From contig OZ287071.1 of the NCBI GenBank assembly GCA_965645245.1, positions 2,046,001-2,110,000 of the forward strand: a stretch of 64,000 nucleotides of DNA, in the 5' to 3' direction. A program made the translations under genes and the position numbers. Shown here piece by piece: positions 1 through 33,994 of the stretch. The stretch's first letter is position 1. Each line of letters starts with the position of its first letter. The DNA is from Massalongia carnosa. Taxonomy: Eukaryota. The notes beneath the pieces are model-generated. The model saw nothing but the letters and a program-made list of their open reading frames with translations, was not told where the DNA came from and ran no database searches.

Positions 1-1704
1 AATACCAGTCCATGTGTTACCAATCCATCGCCGCATGGTGGGCTCGTCCACAATCTGATCCGCCCAAGTGGTCAAAGAATTCAGTACCTCATCGGGCATT
101 ATCAATGATGGGAAGTATCGCATATGTGAATTTGGGAACTTTTCCTGCGCCTTGGCCTCCCTCCATTCTCGAAGTTTAAGGGTGAACCAAGGCCGCCTAG
201 ACGAGTCACGCTCGGCCGTTCTATTTAACATCTCATTGGCGGCTGTTGATGTCTGAAAACTTGGATCGCAAATTGAACAGCAAGGTTGCGGCTTAACATA
301 GGCCGACGTTGGATACACTTTATCATTGAAGAAATTCAAGCCAATACCTCGAACGCAACCATCTGAAGGCACATTGATTATCTCCCAAAGACCCGGTGGC
401 ATATCTCGTCGCCGATCAGCATCCTTTTGATTGATGCGGCGTTTACTGGCCTTGGATTCAATCTCGATTCCCGCGTCATATCCGTCCTGTTCGTCCATTT
501 TTGATCCGCTTCTTGGACCCATGCACCAAGAAGGATGCAAAAGAGTAAAATGCGCCTGTCCTCGACCGCAACGCAAAGCACGACCTAAACGTTGGTATAG
601 CTTCGCCATTGACGAGGGTAGCAGCCATTGCGTAACTCTCATAACGTCTGGATTATCAATACCAAGCCCGTATGCATCCGTTGCGATCAGGATTCGAGGA
701 AATTTACATTGATTCGAGGGCATTTCGAAGCGAGCCGCAATCCTTTCTTTGTCTTGGGTGGCCATGTCGGAAAAGAAAGGCGCGACCCAACTAGCAGCCT
801 CAATTGGATAGGACAATTGATTCATCCATACTTTCATTAGCGCACACGCCTTTTTGATAGATGAAATTGAATCCATGAAGATAATCGTTTTCGGAATATC
901 AAAAGGACTCTCAGCCCGTGTTGGTAAAAGATGTTGAAGATCGATCATGCTGTTCATAGGCCGCTGTAGACTGCTTGTCTGTATGTATATCCCTGGACGA
1001 TCAAGCGCTGTTTGAATAACAGTACTTTCGTTATCAAAGCCACAGCGATCTTTAACGCTCTCTAGGGTTCTTGGATCCAGCGTTGCAGACGCACCCAGAA
1101 AAGGAATACCATCTGGTAATCGTGTACGAAGCACACCGAGATTGAAGTATTCGGGCCGGAAATCTCGCCATTCGGATACAAGATGCATCTCATCAAGAGC
1201 TAAAAGACATAAATTCAAGAAGAAACTTGGATGCCTCAGAACCTCCTGATTAAACAGCTTTGACGTCGCTATCTCTGGGCTAGTAAAAACTATTCATATT
1301 AACGAGTAAGTTTTTATATTTATCTCAATCATAATTTGAATACACACCATGCGTATAATTGTTTTCACGAATTAACTTTAAATTAGAAGAATTATTACTA
1401 TCACCGTCCAACACGAAAGGCTTGCATCCCTCGATAACGCTCAATTTCTTGCACTGTTGAGCTTCTAAGGTCTTGAGAGGCATGATAATTAAAGCGATCT
1501 TAAGACAAGAGAACATTAATGGCATAGCTTGAAAGATAATACTCTTTCTAAATCCAGTCTTGGCGATAAATATCAGATCCTTTTGATCTTGTGCTAAAGT
1601 CATGATAGCGTCAACTTGCTCATTCTTTGGATAAAAGCCGAATTTACTTAAAATCACGGTCGTCACCTGCTCGCGAGTTATCGACGCTATAGGATCGTCC
1701 ATTT
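1..1704 (-). CDS. RecQ-like superfamily-2 helicase (3' end outside window), probably transposon-encoded; Walker A altered
   Basis: Exon 1 MDDPIAS..EQVDAI..AKTGFRKS..IMPLKTLE; intron ~1291-1347; exon 2 reads open to the window edge with SPE, LALDEMH (motif II), SAT (III), ATDAYGLGID (V), QRLGRA (VI), a Cys-rich Zn segment (CVR..CCSIC) and an HRDC-like LREWR segment. Confidence 0.85.
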
Positions 1705-2160
1705 CGATGTGTTCGCGAGCGATATTCGACGATTCGCGAGTTGGATTCTTAGCCCGCAAAACGCACATCAAGCAAGTTCATCACATTCAACGATTTTAGG
1801 CTTTCGAAAACAACGCTCGGAGGATCAGATTAATGATCAGAAGCGCCGACAATGAAAAACTGGAGCTAGTGACCCGTTGAGTCTGCTGTGGTGGTGTCGA
1901 AATTTCGAGTCAAAGTCGAGTCCTCGTCGCGAGATCGATATTGCGACTCAATTTTGCATCGATATGTAATTAAAATATTGATTAATCGATAGAATGTATA
2001 TCAAAGCATCATTTCTATTATTACATAATTTATGAAATGTCGTTGCGCGTTGTTGATTCCGCCGTCAACTTGATTCTTGATGATTTTTGAGGTTAAGCCA
2101 AAAATTTGTATGAGCGCGCACCAAAATAAGCCGGATCTGACAAAAATACAGAGTTTTGCG

Positions 2161-2304
2161 CTCAGACGTGCCGCCCGTAGCATGCGTAGTCAGCTAAAGG
2201 GCCGCTAACCCGAAGGGAATTAGCGACGCTAACCCGAAGGGGCTTAGCGAAAATAGGCTAACCCGGAGGGGCTTAGCCGGCTCATAGAGCCACGCACGTC
2301 TGAG
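2161..2304. repeat. Three 21-bp imperfect palindromes enclosed by an 11-bp perfect inverted repeat
   Basis: GCTAACCCGAAGGGAATTAGC 2204-2224, GCTAACCCGAAGGGGCTTAGC 2228-2248, GCTAACCCGGAGGGGCTTAGC 2257-2277; CTCAGACGTGC 2161-2171 / GCACGTCTGAG 2294-2304. Confidence 0.9.
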
Positions 2305-2694
2305 GTACTGAGGCAACAGCTTTGTCAGAATCTCATTAACTAAATCGAGTTTAGACCCCTCTCAACGGCTTCAGGTCAAAGCTGTACCATCACCATCAAA
2401 GCGTACCAACGACAGGAGAACCTCATCTCCACCTTTTATCGTCTAACACCTCGTCAAACCTTCGTGCCGTACGTCTCCTAATAGGGGGAGATGAATACTG
2501 ATCGAATCTTCATGCAAAGGGGTTCGAGACAAATATAAAAGGAAGGACAAGTTAATTAGATACTCGTATTCACCCCCATTTGCAACACACCCCCATTTGC
2601 AGCACGCTAGTTAGTAAGCACTCGCATTAAAGTCCGCTAACTCCGGTATATCAAATTTTTTTCATTTCTCCCTCTTCTATCTGCATTGTCAACT

Positions 2695-3182
2695 TGTCAT
2701 GGAATTACCTCGCACCCTCCCACGTTTCCTGATCGGGTTAGTATTTAACAGGCTCTCTTGCCGTGAAACCTGCCCTGCATGTTGAATAGAACCGTGGCTC
2801 GTTATTCCGAACTATCCTTAAAACCTCACCCCATGTGTTCAGACCTTCTTCCGCTGCCTTCAGTGCACTCCCAAACTCCTACATCCCGAATCCAATCTCA
2901 ACGTCTCCACTATCCAAGCCTACGACTGGGATTGCCCAGCAGAGAGAGATTGCTTCGGCATGGAGAAAGGCGGAACAGGTCAAAGCGATCATGGTTAGGA
3001 AATTAGAACGAACAGAGATGAGGGCAAGTCAAGAATAGGGGAGTTGGAAGCCATGGCTATAAAACCTATGTGGTTTCTCAGGTGTTTGGAGCTCTTCGTC
3101 GGACGTCTTGTATACTATCCCTAGACCTAGCTTTCTAATAGTAACTCTTGCATATCTCCCTATCTGCACCTTGTCCGTGACA
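2695..3182 (+). mobile_element. Solo LTR (488 bp) inside the Fot1 5' region
   Basis: TGTCATGG...CCGTGACA termini; 5-bp TSD CAACT at 2690-2694 and 3183-3187; TATAAAA at 3058. Confidence 0.9.
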
Positions 3183-3200
3183 CAACTCAATTAATTCATT

Positions 3201-5044
3201 ATGAACTCAGCAGACGAACTGCCCAAAGAGGAGCGCATTCAGCTTGCTATTGCTGCTTATAGAGAGTCATTTAATGACTGGGAAGCCGGTCCCAAAGCTC
3301 TCGAAGACAAGCCATCCGTTCGAAAAATCGCCCGTAAGCATGGTATCATTCATTCCACCCTTACTAGACGACTTGCAGAAACGAAAACTCATAAAGAAGC
3401 TGCTCTATTGCAGCAGCGATTACTTCCGGAGGAGGAATCCGCTCTCGTGGACTGGACAATACAAATGGAGGCATGGGGCTGGCCTCCTCGTGTAACACAA
3501 CTTCGCTTTATGGCGTTAGAAATGCTGATAAAGCGAGACGATCGCAACGATTTGGGTATCAATTGGGTGAGCAAATTTTTATCCCGTCATAAAGAGTTGG
3601 ATACTGTGTTTTGTCAGGCATTGGACAAGGAAAGAGCTTTAATGCATAATACGGAAATGCTCAATCAATGGTTTCAGCTGTACGCAAAGAATTTTAATCA
3701 ATACAAATTCAATGAGGAGGACTGCTACAATATGGATGAAAAAGGATTTGCTATGGGACTAGTGGGCAAGCTCAGAGTAATTTGCTCTAAGCATTATCGA
3801 CCAGCATTATTGACTCAATGCGGTAATAGAGAATGGGTTTCTCTGATCGAATGTGTATCTGCTGATGGAGCGGTTCTTAAACCATGGGTTATTTTCAAAG
3901 GTAAACAACAGCAAAAGGCCTGGCGTTCATTTATCAAGAAGGTGGTCACATTGCTCTGAGTGAGAATGGATGGACAAACAATGAAATCGGTCTGGATTGG
4001 TTAAAGCAGTGTTTTGAACCGGAAACACGAAGCCGTTTAAAAGGTCGCTATCGTCTTCTTATTCTCGATGGACATGCTTCTCATCTTACTTCAGAAGCGA
4101 TTCAGTTTTGTAAGGAAAAAGACATCATTCTTTTATGTCTTCCTTCTCATTCAACGGACATGCTTCAGCCTTTAGACGTTGGTGTTTTTTATCCATTGTC
4201 TACAGCCTATCGGGTGGAACTGGAGAAGTATATTAGACTAGGAGTTGGTTATTCAATTGATAAAGCAGACTTTCTGCTTCTTTATCAAAAGTCTCGAAAC
4301 AGAGCTTTATCCACTCAAAATATTCAGCATGCCTGGTCCAAAAGTGGGTTGTTTCCATTCAATCCTGCTATAGTTCTTCAAAAACTTCCTAGTCCACCTC
4401 ATCCTTCTACGCCTCCGAAAATGACAGTCACGAGTTCAAATGATGTCTCTGTTTCAGTGGCATTTACTCTAGCAAATGCTGATCAAGTCAATACTTTGAT
4501 GGAGCAATTGACTGACAATGACTCAAATCAATTGATTCTCGACAAGCTTGGAAAGGCCTGCAAATCCGCGTTGGCAAGCAGTCATCTTCTCAGGATTACA
4601 AACGAAGAACTTCTTGTAGCTGCTCGTCGTAAACACGAAAGAGCAAATCGAGCGAAGGGACATTATGGTACTGCTAGAATCATGAATTCGGAGGTTCTCG
4701 AGGAACGAGAGCAAAAGCTAGCTAGCAAAGAAAAGGAAAAGATTGATAAACAAATGACCAAAGAGTTCAATCTTTTGGTGAAATCTTTCAACAAACTCAG
4801 TCCCGATTTATTCATGGAGTCAAAACAACGCAGTCCCATCAAGAAAGCTCTTCAAAGGCCTCCGATGCTTCCTCCGCCTTCGGGTTCAATCATACTTCTC
4901 TCGCCCAGTCCTATCAAGAAGCGATCAAGAGGAAATTCATTGCCAAAAAAGACTTTCATGATTGGGCCGGAGGCGAATAGAATGAAAGAAATGCGCATCA
5001 GTCGAAGTGGTAGGATAATAAAGCCGTCGCAAAGGCTTGATTAA
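3201..5044 (+). pseudogene. Fot1/pogo transposase (HTH + DDD) with one frameshift near 3925-3935
   Basis: HTH/CENP-B-like N-terminus, NMDEKG; the shifted frame gives SENGWTNNEIGLDWL..LILDGHASH..QPLDVG and joins ORF 4160-5044. Confidence 0.9.
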
Positions 5045-5724
5045 AGAACTAGAAACTCGCCTCGTACGCATGATCCTCCTCCTCCTAGCCAATAAAAAGT
5101 CTCTGTACGTATAAATAGTCCTTTCACAAGTTCATTTGCCCTGAGTTTATCTGTCAAATGATGTTGATGGGACTTCAGGACCTATCCTAAAAATTCCCTC
5201 CGATCCAACACAAGCAACGCCTTCTTGATCAACAGTATCGCTTTTTCGAAGCTCAAACTGGAAGACCTCGTTGATTAGAGGACATCGATTGGTCAAGGGA
5301 AAGTTATTAGGACAGTCTGCTGCTGTCAGACAGCTGGAAAGTAGGAGTGAAAAGATGAGGTTTAAACGTACATACAAAGCTCAATTCCAGTTCTTTTGAT
5401 GCAGCCATTGGGTTATATTTAAGGTCAATAAATGTTCAGATTATTCCGAACCGACTTCATCAGTTGGCTTGCAATTACTAGCAATTTTGGTGGCATGCGA
5501 AGCTGAAAGGTAAAGGTTTTTAGGATTTTGGTGGGGTGCTTACTAACTAGCGTGTTGCAAATGGGGGTGTGTTGCAAATGGGGGTGAATACGAGTAGTTG
5601 ACTCCTTGTCCGACGTCTTGTATAGCAATCCATCACCTAGCTATAGCCTTATTAATAAAGACATCTTGATCACCCAAGCCAATTCCTAGGAACATTAGTT
5701 CAATCCCCTGCCCAGTCCTTGACA

Positions 5725-6314
5725 GCTCGGATGGGGTTTCGTACAATTCGAACTAATCTTTTAGAGTTTCAGAGCTGCCAGCATCCTTTCTGGATCGATC
5801 CAAGTTTCTAGTGTATTTGATTTTGCATTCAAGATGCCTGTTTAAGAAATTTTTGTACCAATGCTGACCCAACGAATTCTTGTCCCCTTTGGCCTCCAAA
5901 AGACTATTAGCCATGCCTTCCAAGTGTTGAATGCGAGGTGGCCAACCCTATGCAGTCATCCGCTCTATCTAATCAATCAAAGCCTGTTCTTCTTGTACAT
6001 TTAGCCTTTGAGTGGCTTGATGATAATGCTCTGCGGCCCGTCTGCCTTTGAGCCTGGCTTGTAAAGTCGACTGAGGAACTCCGTAAAGGCGCGCTATTTC
6101 CCGCTGCGAAACGCCCGGATTTTTAGCTAATTCTTCGATAGCCAACTGTAATCTAGTTGCAGGGTCATGTACGGATATATTTACAAACATTTTTATATAC
6201 AAATAATAGATAAATGAATAGTGGTGGTAGATGGGGAGGAAAGAATTTTTTTTGTTACTAGATTTAATAGGGTGACCCGATTGGGTGGCTGACCCGAATG
6301 GGTGGCTAAGACGT
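5725..6314 (-). mobile_element. Truncated Fot1/pogo remnant (one TIR plus decayed transposase N-terminus)
   Basis: Minus strand TA|ACGTCTTAGCCACCCATTCGGGTCAGCCACCCAATCGGG end at 6314; HTH ORF 5969-6202 continues through TAG stops (ID*IERMTA*GWPP, KD*FELY). Confidence 0.85.
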
Positions 6315-6332
6315 TATGCCGAAGGCGGGATC

Positions 6333-7444
6333 TGTCACGGTTCTACTCGGCACTACTTTGGTAGACCGGAGCGGAACAAGTGTAATAGGGTAGGCCTAGT
6401 ATGCGTTCGTTGAACGTAAGACTGGCCTATGTGGCTATGTGGGATACGTACAGCCAAAACAACCACCAAGACAATAATGTCCCGCCTAACCCAGTTAGGC
6501 ATAGTGTGGGGACTTAACTTATTATGGAGGAGTTTTCGTAGTACACGAAGTATCCCCTCGCCTCGCCTCACCTCCCCTAGCTCACCTGCCTAGTCTTATC
6601 TACCCGTGTCTTTCGGTGTCCGAAGTTTTTCGGAGTCCGAAAATACCAGGTAGTATGGGCAAGGTATGGAAGAAGAGCTTAGGTTATGGATTGTCCTATC
6701 CTATATAGATCAATGATCAAGCACTTTAAAAGGGTAGCATTTAGTCTACACTTTGACCCGACCGTACCTATTTTGTACCTCTATTGTGACCATCACGTTG
6801 TGTAGCCCCTGTGGATCCCATCTTCCAGTAGTGAATGCCTGCTGGGAGAAGGTCTCCCCGTTTCAACAAGCCACAGGCCGAAGTCACGGGATCGCGTATT
6901 ATGGTAGGGCGACATGTGTCATCTATGGTCAGGTGACATGGCAGGCCTGTGTGGGGATAAAACGGGTTTTTTGCTGGCGTTTTTCTTCATCATCTCCGGA
7001 CATCATCTTCTATCACCTACGCTGTCATCATCATCGTCGTGTCACGTAGTCATCGACACACGTTTATTTCGTGCATCAACTAGTCGTTCATTCGCTCAGT
7101 CGTCGACTTCTTTTCATATCTATGCAGTCGTAGGTCCATTCAGACGTTTGTGTGTGTGTGTATGTTCACTGCTCAGTTCGCCATCTATCATCACGTACCA
7201 CTACCTTCCATTAGCACGCACGAATACCCTTCTTTAGTATGCGCGCTAGACTTATCGCGGCATTCACGGTTTCCATAGCTGGTCAATGCTCGAACCTTCT
7301 AGATCCTTCCACGAGTCGGTTGAGGGCTAGGGGCCGCTGGACTATATAGGGGCGAGATTTGTCTTTCAATTATTCTTTTCTTCTTTATCTTGATTGTATT
7401 CGTTTCTGGTGTCCCTATGGCTAGTCTCTAGGTAGATCATAACA
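6333..7444. mobile_element. Solo LTR-like element (~770 bp without its nested insert)
   Basis: TGTCACGG...TCATAACA termini; 5-bp TSD GGATC at 6328-6332 and 7445-7449. Confidence 0.75.
6900..7236. mobile_element. Solo LTR family B, copy 1 (termini mutated TG>TA and CA>TA)
   Basis: Colinear with 10553-10899; 4-bp TSD GTAT at 6896-6899 and 7237-7240. Confidence 0.85.
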
Positions 7445-8337
7445 GGATCGTAATATCCGGTAATTGTGCTAGACTACTTTCGGAATAAAGAGAGCACCCC
7501 TTAGTGCTTACCGGCTCAAAGACGCATTTTTCAACTCCTCAAAATTTAAAAAAAAATCAGACCTCCATGAAAAGACGTCCAAATAGCTTCATTTCGGGTT
7601 TAAAATCTACGGCTTAGTCTGTTCTACAAACAGGCTCTGCCCTAGTAAAAATCGGGCGTTGTATAACTGGGTTGATGAGGCCTTTTTCCCTTTATAAGCC
7701 TCTCTTTGTTCCTTTCGTCTAGCCTTTCTTTTTTTTTGACGAATTGAACATAATTCTCTACATTGAATTACTTTTATGACTCCACCCTTTGCAGCTACAT
7801 GACCCACGAGAGCGGCCCGACTTTTACGCGATGTGGTAGCTTTTTACACTTGCTGAAGGTCCCGCGTAGTCAAATCTAGGGTGTTGGCGGAGGTGATGGA
7901 GGCCCTAATAAATTTCTGAAAACCGTCTACTTTTTTTTATTTATCTATCTAACAATCGGCCCAGCCGCGGTCAATGCCCTTTGCAATTTGTGACCGAGTT
8001 TTCTGATTGATTCGGGGCCTCAAGGGGTGCCCTCATGAAATTGAAGAGATGCGGGGTTCGGGATGCGGGGTTCATTCATAATTTCCAAGGCTACAGCTTA
8101 CTTCTGACGAATGACGTCGAGTACCATGTTCGGATAGAATGGGACAATGCCGGTGGTCCTTAATGCATGACGAATATTAGATAATTTGAATGTCTTATTG
8201 CGAAATTCCTAGAATGCGGCTACAAATTCCAATTTTCCAAATTCCGTGTCTCCTATTCTTATCGCATGATCAATGGCCTCAGCATAATAGTGTTTGTACG
8301 GCTGAAAAATACCCAATTCTAACGGCTAAGTCCAATG

Positions 8338-8508
8338 TGTGACGAAGCGAGATAGTGAATAGATTTCTACCATTGCGCCACCTATCCTTCCCGACCAAAA
8401 GGCACAATACTTAGTTCGCAGACCAAGCTCTATTCTACTATAACTGGGTCTCCTGCTATATTCGCTGTAGATCCTGCCGTCCGCACCACGCTTGGTCGAA
8501 CCGTTACA
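8338..8508 (-). mobile_element. Solo LTR family A (171 bp), copy 1
   Basis: TGTAACGG...CGTCACA on minus strand; TSD CAATG at 8333-8337 and 8509-8513. Confidence 0.9.
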
Positions 8509-8588
8509 CAATGAGTAGAATGTGCTGGAAGACGAAATAGAACGATCTGTGACGAAGCGAGATAGTAAATAGATTTCTACCATTGTGC

Positions 8589-9156
8589 TGTCACGGTGCG
8601 AGGTCTGGTAGGAATTCAGGTGGTGCAAACTTATTACTTGATTGTCTAGCTAGGTAGACAAGACGTTCGACAAGGAGAAAAGAAACAGAAATTCCAACGT
8701 GGGCGAGTATAAGACTCTGGCAAACGGAACTAGTCCTAATCCAGCCGTTGATCTAATTTCCCAAGTCCCTGGCATATATAACGGTTCGACCAAGCGTGTT
8801 GCGGACGGCAGGACCTACAGCGAACATAGCAGGAGTCCCAGTTATAGTAGAATAGAGCTTGGTCTGCGGACTAAGTATTGTGCCTTTTGGTCGGGAAGGA
8901 CAGGTGGCGCAATGGTAGAAATCTATTCACTATCTCGCTTCGTCACAGCATAAACTATCGCTATGACACTATTGATAGTCCGAACACTTACCTTAAGCCG
9001 GAACACTTACCTTTGCCCTGACTGAACCGGATTAAGCTTAGTTCCTTTCGGATCGGCTAGCCCGCTAGTGCTTCGTTCAAGCAGCTAAGGTTAGTTCAAT
9101 TAAACTAAAGGTTGATTCAATGAACTAACTGGCAGGTGCCTAGTCACTCCATGACA
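8589..9156 (-). mobile_element. Solo LTR (~390 bp without nested insert)
   Basis: TGTCACGG...CCATGACA termini; TSD TGTGC/TGCGC (one transition); carries CTCCTTGTCGAACGTCTTGT motif on minus strand. Confidence 0.8.
8777..8947 (+). mobile_element. Solo LTR family A, copy 3
   Basis: TATAACGG (TG>TA)...CGTCACA; TSD GCATA at 8772-8776 and 8948-8952. Confidence 0.9.
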
Positions 9157-10016
9157 TGCGCCACCTGTCTTTACACAATACTTAGTTCGCAGACCAAGTT
9201 CTATTCTACAGTACTAGGTCAAAAGTTTCCGACAACTCCCCATCAACTTTTTACCCCCCCCACTGCTTTGAATTATCAACAACCAAGTTTTTATTTTATG
9301 CCTTGAAACTTGGTACGATGATTACATACATTCTAGCAAGGAATTTGGGATGAGAAATATCTTTTTAATATTTCGTATACCATCCTTTCGATTGGATGCA
9401 AGCTTCAATCCTCCTTTCCATGCTCTCTATTAAACTTCTCAACATTTCCTCATCTATCAAGGTCTATGCTTCTTCCAACGCTTTCCAAAGTACCTCGCGG
9501 ACCTTATCATCACTACCAGTCACCGAATCGATGTCCGGATTGACTTGATAAAAGAGCTGTTTGAGCACATACCAAACGTGCTTGATGGGGTTCAAATCAG
9601 GAGAATAAGGAGGCCAATCGATGATTGTTATACCGTTTTCATCGAACCATTTCTTCACCTTTTTGGCAGTATGAAGCGGTGCATTATCCTGTATGAAAAT
9701 GAAGCCCGGTTCCCAAATTTCAAGCAGATTATCGTTCAATAATTCCAAATATGAATTCGCGGAGTACCCCATCTTCTTTGCTTCGAAATCGCGGGCCAAT
9801 TTGTAAAGATCTGACCTTTCTCTCATACACAAAGCCCCCCATACCATAACCTTGACCTCCTTGCCTTTGGCGTACGGTTGTATCATAGGTTTTTTCCATT
9901 TTTCCTCCGGAAATCTGAACATCCATTGACGCTATTTTCCTGACCCCTTTTCCACCGAACACTCGTCTGACCATATAATTTTTGACCATTGCTCAGAAGT
10001 CCACTCACGCCGAAGC

Positions 10017-10187
10017 TGTAACGGTTCGACCAAGCGTGGTGCGGACGGCAGGACCTACAGCGAACATAGCAGGAGTCCCAGTTATAGTAGAATAGAGCTT
10101 GGTCTGCGGACTAAGTACTGTGCCTTTTGGTCGGGAAGGACAGGTGGCGCAATGGTAGAAATCTATTCACTATCTCGCTTCGTCACA
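10017..10187 (+). mobile_element. Solo LTR family A, copy 4
   Basis: TGTAACGG...CGTCACA; TSD GAAGC at 10012-10016 and 10188-10192. Confidence 0.9.
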
Positions 10188-10552
10188 GAAGCAAGCACCA
10201 TTCTAATCTCCTCTTTGCCACCTCGGGCGTCAATAAAGGCCGCTTTTAGCCAGCCAGTTTGTTATACCGTAGTCTCTGAGCGTCCGATAGAGAGTGGATC
10301 GACTGCATTGCACCCCGGCCTCCGTACGCAGCTGCGCATAGGTGATGCGTGGATTGATTCGTGTAAATTTGATGATACGTCTTCTATCGCGATCCGAAAA
10401 TATTCCAGGCCGACCTGATCGCGATTTAGACTTTTCGTTGTTGCGTTCTGAGTGCTTTTGAAGAGTGTAAATGACGGTGGTTCGAGGCACATTTAATGTC
10501 TTTGCAATTTCGGCCGGTGCATGCCCCAACGCCTGGGCTCCAATAATCATAC

Positions 10553-10899
10553 TGTGGTGGGGCGACATATGTCATCTATAGTCAGGTGACATGGTATGCC
10601 TGTGTGGGGATGAAACGGGTTTTTTGCTGCCGTTTTCTTCATCATCTCCGGACATCATCTTCTATCACCTACGCTGTCATCATCATCGTCGTGTCACGTA
10701 GTCATCGACACACGTTCATTTCGTTGCATCAACTAGTCGTTCAGTCGTTCAGTCGTTCAGTCGTCGAGTTCTTTTCATGTCTATGCAGTCGTAGGTCTAT
10801 TCGGACGTTTAAGTGTGTGTGTGTGTGTTTACTGCTCAGTTCGCCATCTATCATCACGTACCACCACCTTCCATTAGCACGCACGACTACCCTTCTTCA
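10553..10899. mobile_element. Solo LTR family B (347 bp), copy 2
   Basis: TG...CA termini; TSD ATAC at 10549-10552 and 10900-10903; removal restores the transposase frame QRG-MIIGAQALG. Confidence 0.9.
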
Positions 10900-12478
10900 A
10901 TACCTCTTTGACATTGATTCAATATGGTATTACGAGGCTTATTACCAGAAATTAAAGCCAACGGAGTGCGTGGCTTAGTGAAATGATGAGGTCAAAGTTG
11001 ATGGGTTGGAGGGGTTGAAACGCGAAATCACGAAAATCGCGGGTAGAGTCGGAAACTTTCGACACGGGACTGTACTATAACTAGGACTCCTGTTATGTTC
11101 GCTGTAGGTCCTGCCGTCCGCACCACGCTTGGTCGAACCGTTACACGATCTGATTTTCAGTGGCCAGCTTCAAAAACGGAATAGTTGAATGAGACCCAAA
11201 CCCGTCGATGACTAGAAGTAGCCAAGCTCCACGTCTTTTAGTCCGTGTATACTCGATGAAATGACGAAGCCAATCCATGGCTAAATTGTCATTTGAATAA
11301 CCGGTCTCTCTGGTCCCAATCAACGTCTCTCCGTCGATATCGTTGCGTTGACACTATTTATGAAGAATATGAATACCCGAAAGAATAAGTAATAGTAGAA
11401 TAACGTCACCGGCCGAGCTGATGCACTCTACAGAAGTAATATAGTCACGATTATCCGGATCAGTCATATGAAGAGGCTTTCGTGGGTCCAAGGTGATTAC
11501 TATATGAGCTCGTCCGTATCCAATTCGAAAGCCTGTTTCGTCTATATTCTATATATCTAACTCCGTTATTCCCTTTTCCATCATCAACCTTTCTAACTTG
11601 CTAAAATGTTCAACTATATTGTTAACGTCGTGACTATTTTTTCGATCTACTGCGAGAGGCTTCTGTTTTCGTACATGAAGCTCGGGATTTCGATCAAAGA
11701 GATCGCTTCAGCCACTGATGACCAAGAGTACGATTCTCAAACGAATCAGATAATTTGCAGCCCCCACGATCAATTTGGGTCGCAAACACATGTTGGCCTT
11801 GTCCAATCGCTCGATGTAGTCACGAACAGCTTGTTCTTGCTCATCCGTCAGAGCTTTGTTTGTACTAGGTCGATTGCTTTTGGAGTTGCCTCCATTCTAT
11901 CGTTTTTGAACCGTACGAGGGGCAACGTCAAAAGCTATAGCTGCAGCTCGACAATTAGTATACAAACCATCGTGTAACGCGTCAATTGCACTGTCAATTC
12001 GATCCTCGATAGCTGAATATGAATTGACCATTACGTTGTTGATTGTTGACGTGTCGAAGTTGAGGTGTAAAATGTTGTGTTAAATTGCACTGCCCTAGTT
12101 CTGGAAGTTTCTATGCTTAGTCAGCTGAATGTATATTAGCCGCTCTTCTCCTATAGAACAATCAACCGTCTCAAGTTTCAACATGTTGAAAATGCGTCTT
12201 TGAGCTGGTAGCGTCTTTGAGCCGGTAAGCACTGAGGGGGCGCTCTCTGCATTCCGAAAGTGGTCTAGCACGATTACGGTCGAGGCAAGAGAACTTTTGG
12301 TCCTGTCCGCACGACGTCCTCTCCGCATTAATCGGTAATTCAGTAGTATATAGATAGCCGAGTCTAGCCCAAAGTGGCTTAATCCACACATTACCTTATT
12401 CGATGTGTTGGGTTGCAAAACATGTCTCAAATAAGAATCTAATAAAATATAGGAAGCTAGCACCCAACATTCAGAGGC

Positions 12479-28627: not shown

Positions 28628-30758
28628 ACGTAATCGTCGGCCTCGCTTAGCTGCCTCCACCACCTATTTTGCAGCTTTTTGCAACACTTCTCGACCGCAA
28701 CCTATGACCGTTAGCTGTTATTATTCATACCATAGATAGATATCAACTGCACATCCTAACTGCTCATTTATCAACCGGGAATGCATTATATTTTTTCCAA
28801 TTTCACCAGTTTTATCACCTATTTACAACTCATTTGCGACGCCGTCTCATCATTTTTTTTATTATTAATAATTCATTAAGCGTATGCATCCTAAGGATAT
28901 GACGCTGTGACTGCTATTTATGTACATAAACAACAGTCAGGAAGTGGAAACCTGGCCCCCAGGGTAAAACCACTCCCTTGTTCCATGTTGAACGCAACGA
29001 GACCGTCCTTCTACCACGCGGTGCGTACACCCAGATCTTCAAGCGCTAGGAATCCTATAGACTCGATGAACTAGACAGTGTATTTTCACACGTTCGACGA
29101 ACGTTCTCTCTCTTTAAACGTTTTGATTCAATGGAGGAAAGACTGGCCGTGATCGAGGGCAGATCGTGGTGTCGTATAAATGAAGCCGTCTCATCATGAT
29201 TTGCTACCTTCATTTACTTTATTTTCAACCTCATTTGCAAATATTATTAAGTAGATATATATCAATTGTGCGTTCTAATAGTGACTCCTAGTCTGACGAT
29301 AGCCCCCTTGATAAAAGTTAAACTGCTCATCCTCATCACCCTCATCACCCTCACCACCCTCATCATTCTTATTGTTCTCAGTGTTGATCTCTGCAAGGAC
29401 ATCTTGGATAGCCTTATCATGCCAATGCTTATAGGGTTGAAATACGCCCACATCAAGCGGTTGCATACAATGAGTCAGTTGTGGTATCAGGGGGAGAGGG
29501 CGAATGTGATTTTCATTGGCAAGCTTTATAAACTCAGGGGTGCAATGAGTCCCATGATTATCCATGAGCATCAATTTCTACTGCTTTGTAGGCCCCGAGT
29601 TTGTATTCGCAATGAAATGCTTCGAAAATTCAATGGCTATTTCATCGGTGATGAACCCACTTTCTGATACTTCAATCAGAGTCCGTAGGCAGCCCCTCTT
29701 GGAACCAGTTCTGCATTATTCTACGACCTTGCATGATTAAAACGGGAGAAGGTGGTTGATGACCGGCGGCGTTGATGCTTTCGATTATGATGAGAGATTT
29801 GCGATTTTCTGGACTGATTGAATAGAACTCCTTAATATCTGAGGGAACTAGAATTTCATGACCCTTCATACACTCAACTCGAAATCCTGCTTCATCAAAG
29901 TTCCAGATATCTTGTGAATGAGTTATCCCCAACTCTGCAAGAACCCGCTGGTATCGATCAAACCATAATCTTACATCTGACTCCTGAGCCGTAGTATATC
30001 GAACAACTGCCAGCGGCTTAGTCTTTATCTTGTGCAGGCCATTGTCTTTCCACCATTGCCTAAACCACCGCGGACTTGGATCATTGAATTCGGCATCTTG
30101 AGCACGTTTCAGAGTCTTAATGGCAGCAAAAACCACTTTATGAGTAGGTTCAATGCCATACGCAATCAGAGATCGAATGAATTTGTGAATGGCTCTGACC
30201 TGATGCTCCTCCAGTATTTTGTTCTACCCTTCAATTTTCTTCGGCGGCGTCTTTTCACGTTCAATTGAACTGTATAGAGTGATGTCGACGAGGTTGAAGA
30301 TTCGAGCAGCGCAAACGATGCTCTCCTTGGGGTTTTCTAATAAAACAGCTTAGCATTTTGCACGCGCGTTGCAATAGAATCACTAGTTTTAATAAGGTTC
30401 TTATTCATGATGCTGCTACTATTCATGATTGAGGTGGGGAGCGGTTGATGAAATAGGGAGAGAGGGATTGACGAAATAGGAGGCATGCAACTGATGCGGT
30501 CGCGATTGAATAAAGGTGAATATCCCGGTTAATCAATGAGTAGTTAGGATGGGCAGTTGATATCTATGGTATGAATAATAACAGCTAACGGTCGTAGGTT
30601 GCGGTCGAGAAGTGTTGCAAAAAGCTGCAAAATAGGTGGTAAAATGGGTGAATTTCGACAAATCCTGAAATTGAAACTACGCAGACCGCTTGCCTACGCA
30701 GACCGCTTTCCCCGACTAGAGGCCTCGTATGGAGGCAGCTAAGCGAGGCCGACGATTA
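28628..30758 (-). mobile_element. Decayed Fot1/pogo element with long bipartite TIRs
   Basis: TA|ACGTAATCGTCGGCCTCGCTTAGCTGCCTCC matched by GGAGGCAGCTAAGCGAGGCCGACGATTA; inner IR 28659-28780 / ~30525-30640; broken transposase ~29275-30408 with WNFDEAG, MDNHGTH, QPLDVG. Confidence 0.9.
28854..29184 (-). mobile_element. Short retroposed insertion, probably a 5'-truncated LINE 3' end
   Basis: 13-bp direct repeat GCCGTCTCATCAT at 28841-28853 and 29185-29197; minus strand ends TAATGAATATTATTAATAATAAAAAAA. Confidence 0.7.
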
Positions 30759-32852: not shown

Positions 32853-33041
32853 GGAGATCGCGTGAGGATGGAAGTGATCCATCATAGAAGACGTCCAAAG
32901 CTTCCCAATTCATCTAGTACTGTCTTTCCATGACTGGTAGTTATAAAGTACTAGTACGTAGGTTAACCACCTTTTGTTGAAACGTTCAAAGATATCGAGT
33001 ATTGTATACTATGTAGTTTGTACACTGTACATTGTACAATG

Positions 33042-33430
33042 TATTCTATATTCTGTATTCTGTATTCTGAATTCTGTATTCTGTATTCTGTATTCTGTAT
33101 TCTGTAAGCTGTATTCTGTATGCTGTATTCTGTATTCTGTATTCTGTATTCTGTATTCTGTATGCTGTATTCTGTATTCTGTATTCTGTATGCTGTATTC
33201 TGTATTCTGTATTCTGTAAGCTGTATTCTGTAAGCTGTATTCTGTATTCTGTATTCTGTATTCTGTAAGCTGTATTCTGTATTCTGTATTCTGTAAGCTG
33301 TATTCTATATTCTGTATTCTGTATTCTGTATTCTATATTCTGTATTCTGTATTCTGTATTCTGTATTCTGTATTCTGTATTCTGTAGTCTGTAGTCTGTA
33401 GTCTGTAGTCTGTAGTCTGTATTCTGTATT
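33042..33430. repeat. 7-bp tandem satellite (TATTCTG)n, about 55 units
   Basis: Direct reading; variants TATGCTG, TAAGCTG, TATTCTA, TAGTCTG. Confidence 0.98.
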
Positions 33431-33994
33431 GTGTACATGCATTTACATGATGAGTGCAACGGATTCCAAGGTCATCTGGACTTTAGATAAATGGGTGGAT
33501 GGCCAGGCTCCTGTCGAGTGTCAAAACTGATTCTCGATCGAGCCCTAACCCGTTCGAGTAACAACCATAAAGTGCAGCTGTCATTACGAGTCGTGTGCCT
33601 TTCCTTATCTTCAGCGTGGTCAAGAATGCCTATCGCTGGTCTTCATTTAATCTTTATCGCATATTCTTTTTATTTCACCCCCCCCGCATGCGCATCCATC
33701 ATGGCGCTCCCCTTCCCAGTGAAACCATCTCATCCTCTGCGCCGACTGGCTTCTTCTCTTCCTACGTCTCCCTCTCATTCTTTCTTCTTTCTGTCTCCCG
33801 GTACATCATCGTCCCGCTCATGCCGAGTTTGCTCCGAAGGCTTTTCTAACCACTATCGCACGTCAGATAGATTGGCCCGTAGGTGCTCAATGTAGCCTAC
33901 CAAACCACAATACCCCATTTCATGTCCGAGTGCTTTTCTCGCCTGGGGCCGAAAGTGTTAAATAGAATAGCGCTCTAAACCTTTCTTGAGCACT

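Follow-up and report, generated by a model that had tools for sequence, protein, structure and literature searches.

Eukaryotic DNA transposons are mostly known to recognise a short consensus at the cut site when they insert. In yeast, retrotransposons are steered by host factors, and the host-steered or targeted systems include Ty3 with TFIIIB, Tf1 with Sap1, and Tn7 with TnsD, Tn7 having its own target-binding protein. Among cut-and-paste elements, the P element makes an 8-bp target-site duplication, as does the element described here, and to our knowledge P element, hAT and Transib/RAG1-type elements carry no RecQ helicase. A helicase of this kind is a hallmark of AcademH, whose target duplication measures 9-10 bp and for which duplication length within Academ has been linked to the presence of a helicase versus a nuclease (PMC10045372).

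The window analysed here comprises 64,000 bases of Massalongia carnosa contig OZ287071.1. A 6,025-bp cut-and-paste transposon reaches into it from the left, its right end filling the first 2,316 bases. What it shares with AcademH is a fungal setting, inverted repeats, a long duplication and the pairing of a putative DDE transposase with a helicase of the DEAD/Helicase_C type (PMC10045372 and PMC10799480). In addition, 9-bp duplications were found in two complete distant relatives with the same termini (L179 and L199). The first-pass annotation had called the element AcademH-type. A RecQ-like SF2 helicase beside a transposase of predicted DDE/RNase H fold agrees with that assignment; the 8-bp duplication disagrees with the 9-10 bp described, and the copy number is high whereas AcademH is low-copy according to PMC10799480. 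The TT..AA ends, a target motif at a fixed distance and a PhyH dioxygenase in a sub-lineage also set it apart. The comparison, made with published descriptions, partly supports an element that works like AcademH. Because the published duplication length does not match, we do not file it as a member.

Other known systems were compared as well. KolobokH elements make 4-bp TTAA duplications (PMC9587614), in contrast to the 8-bp duplications without consensus seen here. The P element, Hermes and Transib/RAG1 share an RNase H fold with a large helical insertion, and hAT elements share the 8-bp duplication (PMC12730594); however, identity to these transposases is only 5-11%, and Pfam detected neither a hAT dimerisation nor a THAP domain. 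Zisupton/KDZ elements also make 8-bp duplications in fungi and some carry a dioxygenase (PMC12730594), but no KDZ domain matched here, and the dioxygenase of the sister family B matches PhyH rather than TET/JBP. Finally, integration that keeps a constant spacing to a site occupied by a protein (here a candidate site), and not to a consensus in the duplication, resembles Ty3, Tf1 and Tn7; those are retrotransposons or bacterial, whereas this is a eukaryotic cut-and-paste element associated with a Yap response element.

The element, its copies and its two genes

The element occupies contig positions 2042292-2048316, and the 3,709 bases that extend to the left of the window contain the left inverted repeat and a two-exon gene, on the plus strand, for an 871-aa DUF6589 transposase, convergent (tail to tail) with the helicase gene. 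A comparison of 18 copies defined a common stretch from -3708 to 2316, that is 6,025 bp with 95-bp inverted repeats, the right one of which starts TTGCCTCAGTACCTCAGACGTG and contains CTAA-N11-TTAG palindromes (Table 1).

Table 1. Features of the window; positions are those of the 64,000-base stretch.
Feature	Position	Strand	Evidence or remark
Right 2.3 kb of DNA transposon	1..2316	.	copy alignment
Helicase exon 2	1..1289	-	open past base 1; motif II DEMH 1194-1183; motif VI QRLGRALRCG 594-565
Helicase intron, 58 nt, GT-AG	1290..1347	-	predicted from sequence; homologues read through junction
Helicase exon 1	1348..1702	-	ATG 1702; Walker A 1561-1541
Subterminal module	2161..2194	-	Yap-like word GTAGTCAGC (2186-2194), 21 bases from internal GTCTGAG
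Right terminal inverted repeat, 95 bp	2222..2316	-	99% identity with left repeat
8-bp target-site duplication CAGCTTTG	2317..2324	+	same word at left end
Right half of ~260-bp multi-copy repeat (insertion target)	2317..2500	.	empty copies L039, L087, L127
Pogo/Fot1-like element	2561..5596		61-bp inverted repeats; DDE_1 + HTH_Tnp_Tc5; frameshift near 3950
Further Tc1/mariner-like fragments and inverted-repeat pairs	5969..12240, 28631..30758		pairs 7497/12239, 8338/10187, 28631/30758
Tandem array	32923..33519		14-bp period, about 600 bp

The proposal, made from the window's sequence, that one end of a helicase-carrying mobile element lies here was borne out: extension to the left revealed the matching terminus in inverted orientation, 3.7 kb beyond the window, together with the predicted DDE-fold transposase, and the element exists in at least 30 copies and is flanked by duplications. 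The position of the junction had to be corrected. The terminus, placed at 2310 in the first-pass annotation, is ..GAGGTACTGAGGCAA at 2316, and six of the nine bases of the proposed duplication AGGCAACAG (2311-2319) belong to the element, the actual duplication being the octamer in Table 1. Instead of the YR termini named there, the ends read TT..AA (TTGCC..GGCAA). Among 94 end pairings, which include cross-pairs of nested elements, an exact 8-bp duplication was present in 63, a 7-bp one in one, a 9-bp one in one (a cross-pair) and none in 29, and the duplicated words have no consensus. Shifted termini giving a 9- or 10-bp duplication were considered and rejected, as the junctions do not fit.

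A search with bases 1-2400 gave 49 matches from the best 40 of 389 candidates. At least 30 near-identical copies, the window copy included, span bases 1-2316 at 96-100% identity in the 52-Mb, 25-contig genome, and 33 of 43 matches to the left 3.7 kb cover it end to end. The mean difference among 27 aligned copies is 0.34%, and both reading frames are intact in seven of them. The genome has 309 occurrences of the 22-base terminus when up to two mismatches are allowed, many of them belonging to MITEs of about 682 and 215 bp. Family copies are dispersed and interstitial, the window copy being separated from the closer contig end by 0.87 Mb. Any RIP is weak, with 130 of 281 substitutions being C>T or G>A and CpA showing a mild excess. 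This is a young, recently active cut-and-paste family of AcademH-like lineage, with MITEs. Contigs of two public runs omit about 6,033 bases, equivalent to the element plus one duplication; since the flank is a multi-copy repeat, these contigs show empty targets and not polymorphism at the window locus. The neighbouring Pogo/Fot1-like element has TTAGTAAGC at both ends, and the helicase element is inserted beside TTAGTAAGC in another copy (L044). At L064:400-6946 the copy of the flank beside an element is inverted instead of direct across about 235 bp; alternative transposition may have caused this rearrangement.

The two-exon RecQ-like helicase gene recognized from the sequence was confirmed on the minus strand, as was the absence of in-frame stops from exon 2 within the window. 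Its product matches Pfam DEAD and Helicase_C. Against the PDB, by sequence and by fold, it resembles RecQ, WRN and BLM most, with RECQ5 also among the closest solved structures. The short N-terminus also stood: Walker A starts 47 codons past the ATG, versus residue 943 in the 1429-codon frame of the host Sgs1-like gene. Exon 2 further encodes the zinc cysteines announced at first pass (C313, C338, C339 and C342, at least 90% conserved across 30 aligned proteins) and the HRDC-like helices, which are weakly supported, Pfam HRDC matching two of the 30 proteins with a best E of 0.002. What that reading missed is that the window copy is damaged in its helicase, its transposase frame being intact. 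Walker A reads KTGFRKS, versus KTGFGKS in the 19 other scorable copies; the change is private, base 1549 differing from 26 of the 27 aligned copies, and four public runs carry the common base. A frameshifting 1-base deletion 169 bases to the left of the window leaves a helicase of 606 aa, compared with 705 aa in 12 of the 27 copies (seven of the 27 being unscorable).

In a quick tree of 47 rows, none of them a TLH reference, 42 element-type helicases grouped to the exclusion of both RecQ genes of the host and of three RecQ-like outliers with an SH-aLRT of 100, although branches were long. The separation from the host Sgs1-like gene that had been expected was thus recovered. Of 85 loci tested, 24 gave helicase matches. 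All 24 belong to the 80 DUF6589 loci from metagenomes, a set in which many members are not long enough to include a helicase, and these helicases were opposed to the transposase wherever orientation was shown.

The left gene encodes 871 aa in 18 of the 27 copies, among them the window copy. DUF6589 is its only Pfam match, and named homologues come from lichen-forming ascomycetes and Fusarium. Four residues, the candidate catalytic ones, are nearly invariant in the alignment: D298 (38/38), D454 (48/50), H490 (48/49) and E711 (49/49). With the model of a full-length homologue, P0047 (pLDDT 87), the first seven Foldseek rows were P element, RAG1, Transib and Hermes, none below E 0.001; in a wide structure search P element (Z 9.9, rmsd 5.5, 331 aligned), Hermes (9.3) and integrases ranked at the top, within ties, and 7q5b (Ty3 with TFIIIB) was among the rows. 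The model assigns DUF6589 to the DDE transposases with an RNase H fold and a predicted helical insertion, and we infer that DUF6589 is the Academ transposase. For the N-terminal portion of P0047, a feature search of the Atlas yielded nothing usable. In L047 (3007-5703) and L050, the stop within the in-frame 63-nt transposase intron is lost, leaving an 898-codon open frame.

A palindromic motif at a fixed distance from the insertion

A Yap1/AP-1-type site accompanies 44 of 56 independent insertions, always on a single side and 17-18 bp beyond the duplication. The motif, TKASTMA or the 8-bp TKAYRTMA with at most one mismatch, was set on the first sites, and new sites were then collected; counted at the T of TMA, it stands 20-21 bases ahead of the duplication. 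The counts leave out seven sites that were redundant, four that were self-nested, and pairs that lacked a duplication or had short flanks. The motif was present at 30 of 34 training sites and at 14 of 22 held-out sites, where control offsets gave a mean of 1.55 and a maximum of 6 (p about 1e-11). It never occurred on both sides (0/56) and was missing at 12 sites of the 56. Positions beyond the motif definition also follow the palindrome (K in 42/44, C in 32/44), and two adjacent offsets took 31 of the 33 exact hits in the range -28 to -13. Genome-wide, with ends not de-duplicated, the exact heptamer was found at 49 of 263 ends at the two offsets, versus nine over 30 control offsets. Full-length family A carried the motif at 18 of 19 sites, A-like short elements at 23 of 29 and B-type elements at three of eight, with no bias of orientation (transposase end 8, helicase end 10). 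For the window copy the motif is TGACTAAGC, in the left flank, outside the window. Insertion is non-random: the element lands 17-18 bp away from this palindromic Yap1/AP-1-type site, to either side of it and in either orientation. The first-pass annotation had considered the helicase element the most unusual component of the window; the element is real, but its most unusual feature, this fixed-distance target motif, was not noticed there.

Repeats or transposon ends make up many of the targets, and the ~260-bp repeat that received the window copy was hit at differing positions across copies, each time 20-21 bases from one of two Yap-like words; in one repeat, different copies show insertions on both sides of the same word. 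A resemblance of the target to the element's terminal word was considered and rejected, as none of 112 half-flanks matched exactly; 11 of the 112 are within one mismatch of GCTAAG, and the half-site TAAGC also occurs in inverted-repeat arrays. Searches on host-factor targeting of DNA transposons and on AcademH, partial in coverage, returned no published description of this target rule, so that a prior description is possible.

The motif agrees with the characterised Yap1 sites. MTKASTMA, which it also matches, is the Yap1/Cap1 consensus, with six tested heptamers and with 7- and 8-bp forms (PMC3111461), and mTTAsTmAkC, which the insertion flanks match, is listed for Cad1 in Table 1 of PMC2174516. 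The six published heptamers, which were not fitted to our data, occur at 30 of the 56 sites and 8-base forms at four more, against a background of 51 heptamers in 64,000 bases. The host genome encodes a Yap1 orthologue, which has both a bZIP and a PAP1 domain, as well as two more Yap-like basic regions; with at least three Yap-like bZIP genes, it offers several candidates for the steering factor.

The element also carries the word within itself. In all seven element ends examined, TKACTA[AC] lies 20-21 bases before an internal GTCTGAG, which is a copy of the element end sequence, and this spacing equals that of the target sites. This arrangement explains self-insertions. Self-insertions or tandem ends were observed at L037:9788-9898, L051:6399-6600, L085:301-1671 and L070:1870-2551; several of these events sit at the internal GTCTGAG, at a distance of 20-21 bases from the Yap-like word that the element itself carries.

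Relatives and the sister family B

Relative families, about 30% identical, were found by the terminal pattern TT[AG]CCT[CT]AG. In relatives L146-L148 and L201 duplications are unreadable, and their flanks may derive from collapsed copies. Of 34 ends found, 31 were kept after removal of repeats. A Yap-like word lies 26-27 bases from the end in eight of 26 (control mean 1.1, max 5), and the remaining five, all of one family, have no Yap word and show CACGTG, with at most one mismatch, at 27-30; the distance range and the E-box were both picked post hoc. These ends (L136:1104, L137:5044, L138:8616, L144:2359 and L150:7467) include three whose flanks run on with RGTA and a run of T. As a lead from sequence comparison, a Yap word or an E-box may stand at a similar distance from the ends of these relatives.

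Family B, in the same genome, has an 18-base terminus and the 8-bp duplication in common with family A and carries a PhyH dioxygenase in addition. All B copies examined are internal deletions, lacking either the helicase or the transposase. The exact word occurs at three of 41 B ends versus 44 of 177 A-type ends (p 0.012; ends not de-duplicated, B older), a lower rate that could reflect age or a different preference. The idea that B lacks a helicase, so that the helicase would pick the target, was dropped, as L110 and L259 do have a helicase, with 55-73% identity across the pieces aligned, and the B copies examined are internally deleted. PhyH-family dioxygenase genes were located at L102:7422-8519, L131:7218-8318 and L135:582-1361, inside family B and in two relatives from metagenomes with identities of 63% and 41%. 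A hAT transposase (DUF659 plus dimerisation domain) is nested in a family B copy (L102:1044-3053), and a related one adjoins a family A copy (L033:2690-3733).

Candidate readers of the palindrome and their significance

Taken as a whole, the explanation that we consider probable is that of a young AcademH-like family with insertion spaced from Yap sites and steered by the host. For the steering itself, agreement with known factor sites inclines us, slightly, towards a Yap-family bZIP of the host. A bZIP dimer on its response element would hold the transposition complex, and the bound dimer would set the cut about 25 bp away, centre to centre; the same factor probably occupies the element's own subterminal sites, where the spacing is equal. 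The helicase might act after strand transfer, unwinding or clearing the gapped product, a role that we put forward tentatively; bridging to the target would be an alternative role. When the transposase was modelled together with two host Yap1 bZIP chains, without use of an alignment, the score of 0.00 weighed neither for nor against a complex.

The palindrome could instead be read by a protein of the element, either the helical N-terminal domain of a transposase dimer or the basic helices at the helicase end, which would resemble the arrangement of Tn7. The word at target spacing inside the seven element ends keeps this reading alive, the transposase model offers a helical region (residues 63-232) and a helix-turn-helix-like part (237-284), and the helicase has conserved basic helices at its C-terminus. 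A variable element domain could also give the E-box of one relative family despite its similar termini. However, CACGTG, the alternative word, is likewise a classic host-factor site, and the motif mirrors host-factor specificity in its 7- and 8-bp cores, its TGACAAA and TTACAAA variants and its 5' M. Pfam finds neither bZIP nor bHLH in the transposase or the helicase, although other domain types are possible, and altogether we regard an element-coded reader as unlikely.

An indirect effect, in which Yap binding opens or bends the chromatin and the transposase inserts into DNA made accessible beside the site, without protein contact, would fit the identity of the motif as a host-factor site, and its one-sided use would fit a boundary; the near-fixed spacing, with almost all exact hits on two adjacent offsets, appears tighter than expected of an open region, which makes this effect quite improbable. 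Several insertions do share target repeats, so the bias might be thought an artefact of duplicated flanks or of repeated insertion in a few repeats, but the held-out signal persisted after removal of redundant and self-nested sites, the same repeat was hit at different positions at the same distance from a motif, and the word recurs in distant families; we give this reading very little credit. Least credible of all is that the gene is a housekeeping Sgs1/RecQ or telomere-linked helicase: the RecQ-like sequence and fold would suit either, but the dispersed copies within inverted repeats with duplications, the Sgs1-like gene of the host at a separate locus outside the 42-row clade, and the distance of the window copy from the contig end all speak against it.

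Steering by host factors may extend to the whole transposon lineage: the family described here would dock on Yap1, a regulator of the oxidative-stress response, and integrate at ~25 bp from its site, and one relative would have switched to an E-box factor and kept its ends; target choice would then be swappable, possibly coupled through the RecQ-like ATPase. We offer this broader view with less than even confidence.

In summary, what is new in our finding is the target choice, a palindrome at two and a half turns' distance whose sequence agrees with a stress-factor site. With a young family in which seven of 27 aligned copies keep both frames intact, the role of an AcademH-type helicase becomes directly testable. 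If a host bZIP steers the element, its insertion would be tied to stress-responsive DNA and to the ends of other transposons. A site-directed eukaryotic transposase with an exchangeable target would serve genome engineering.
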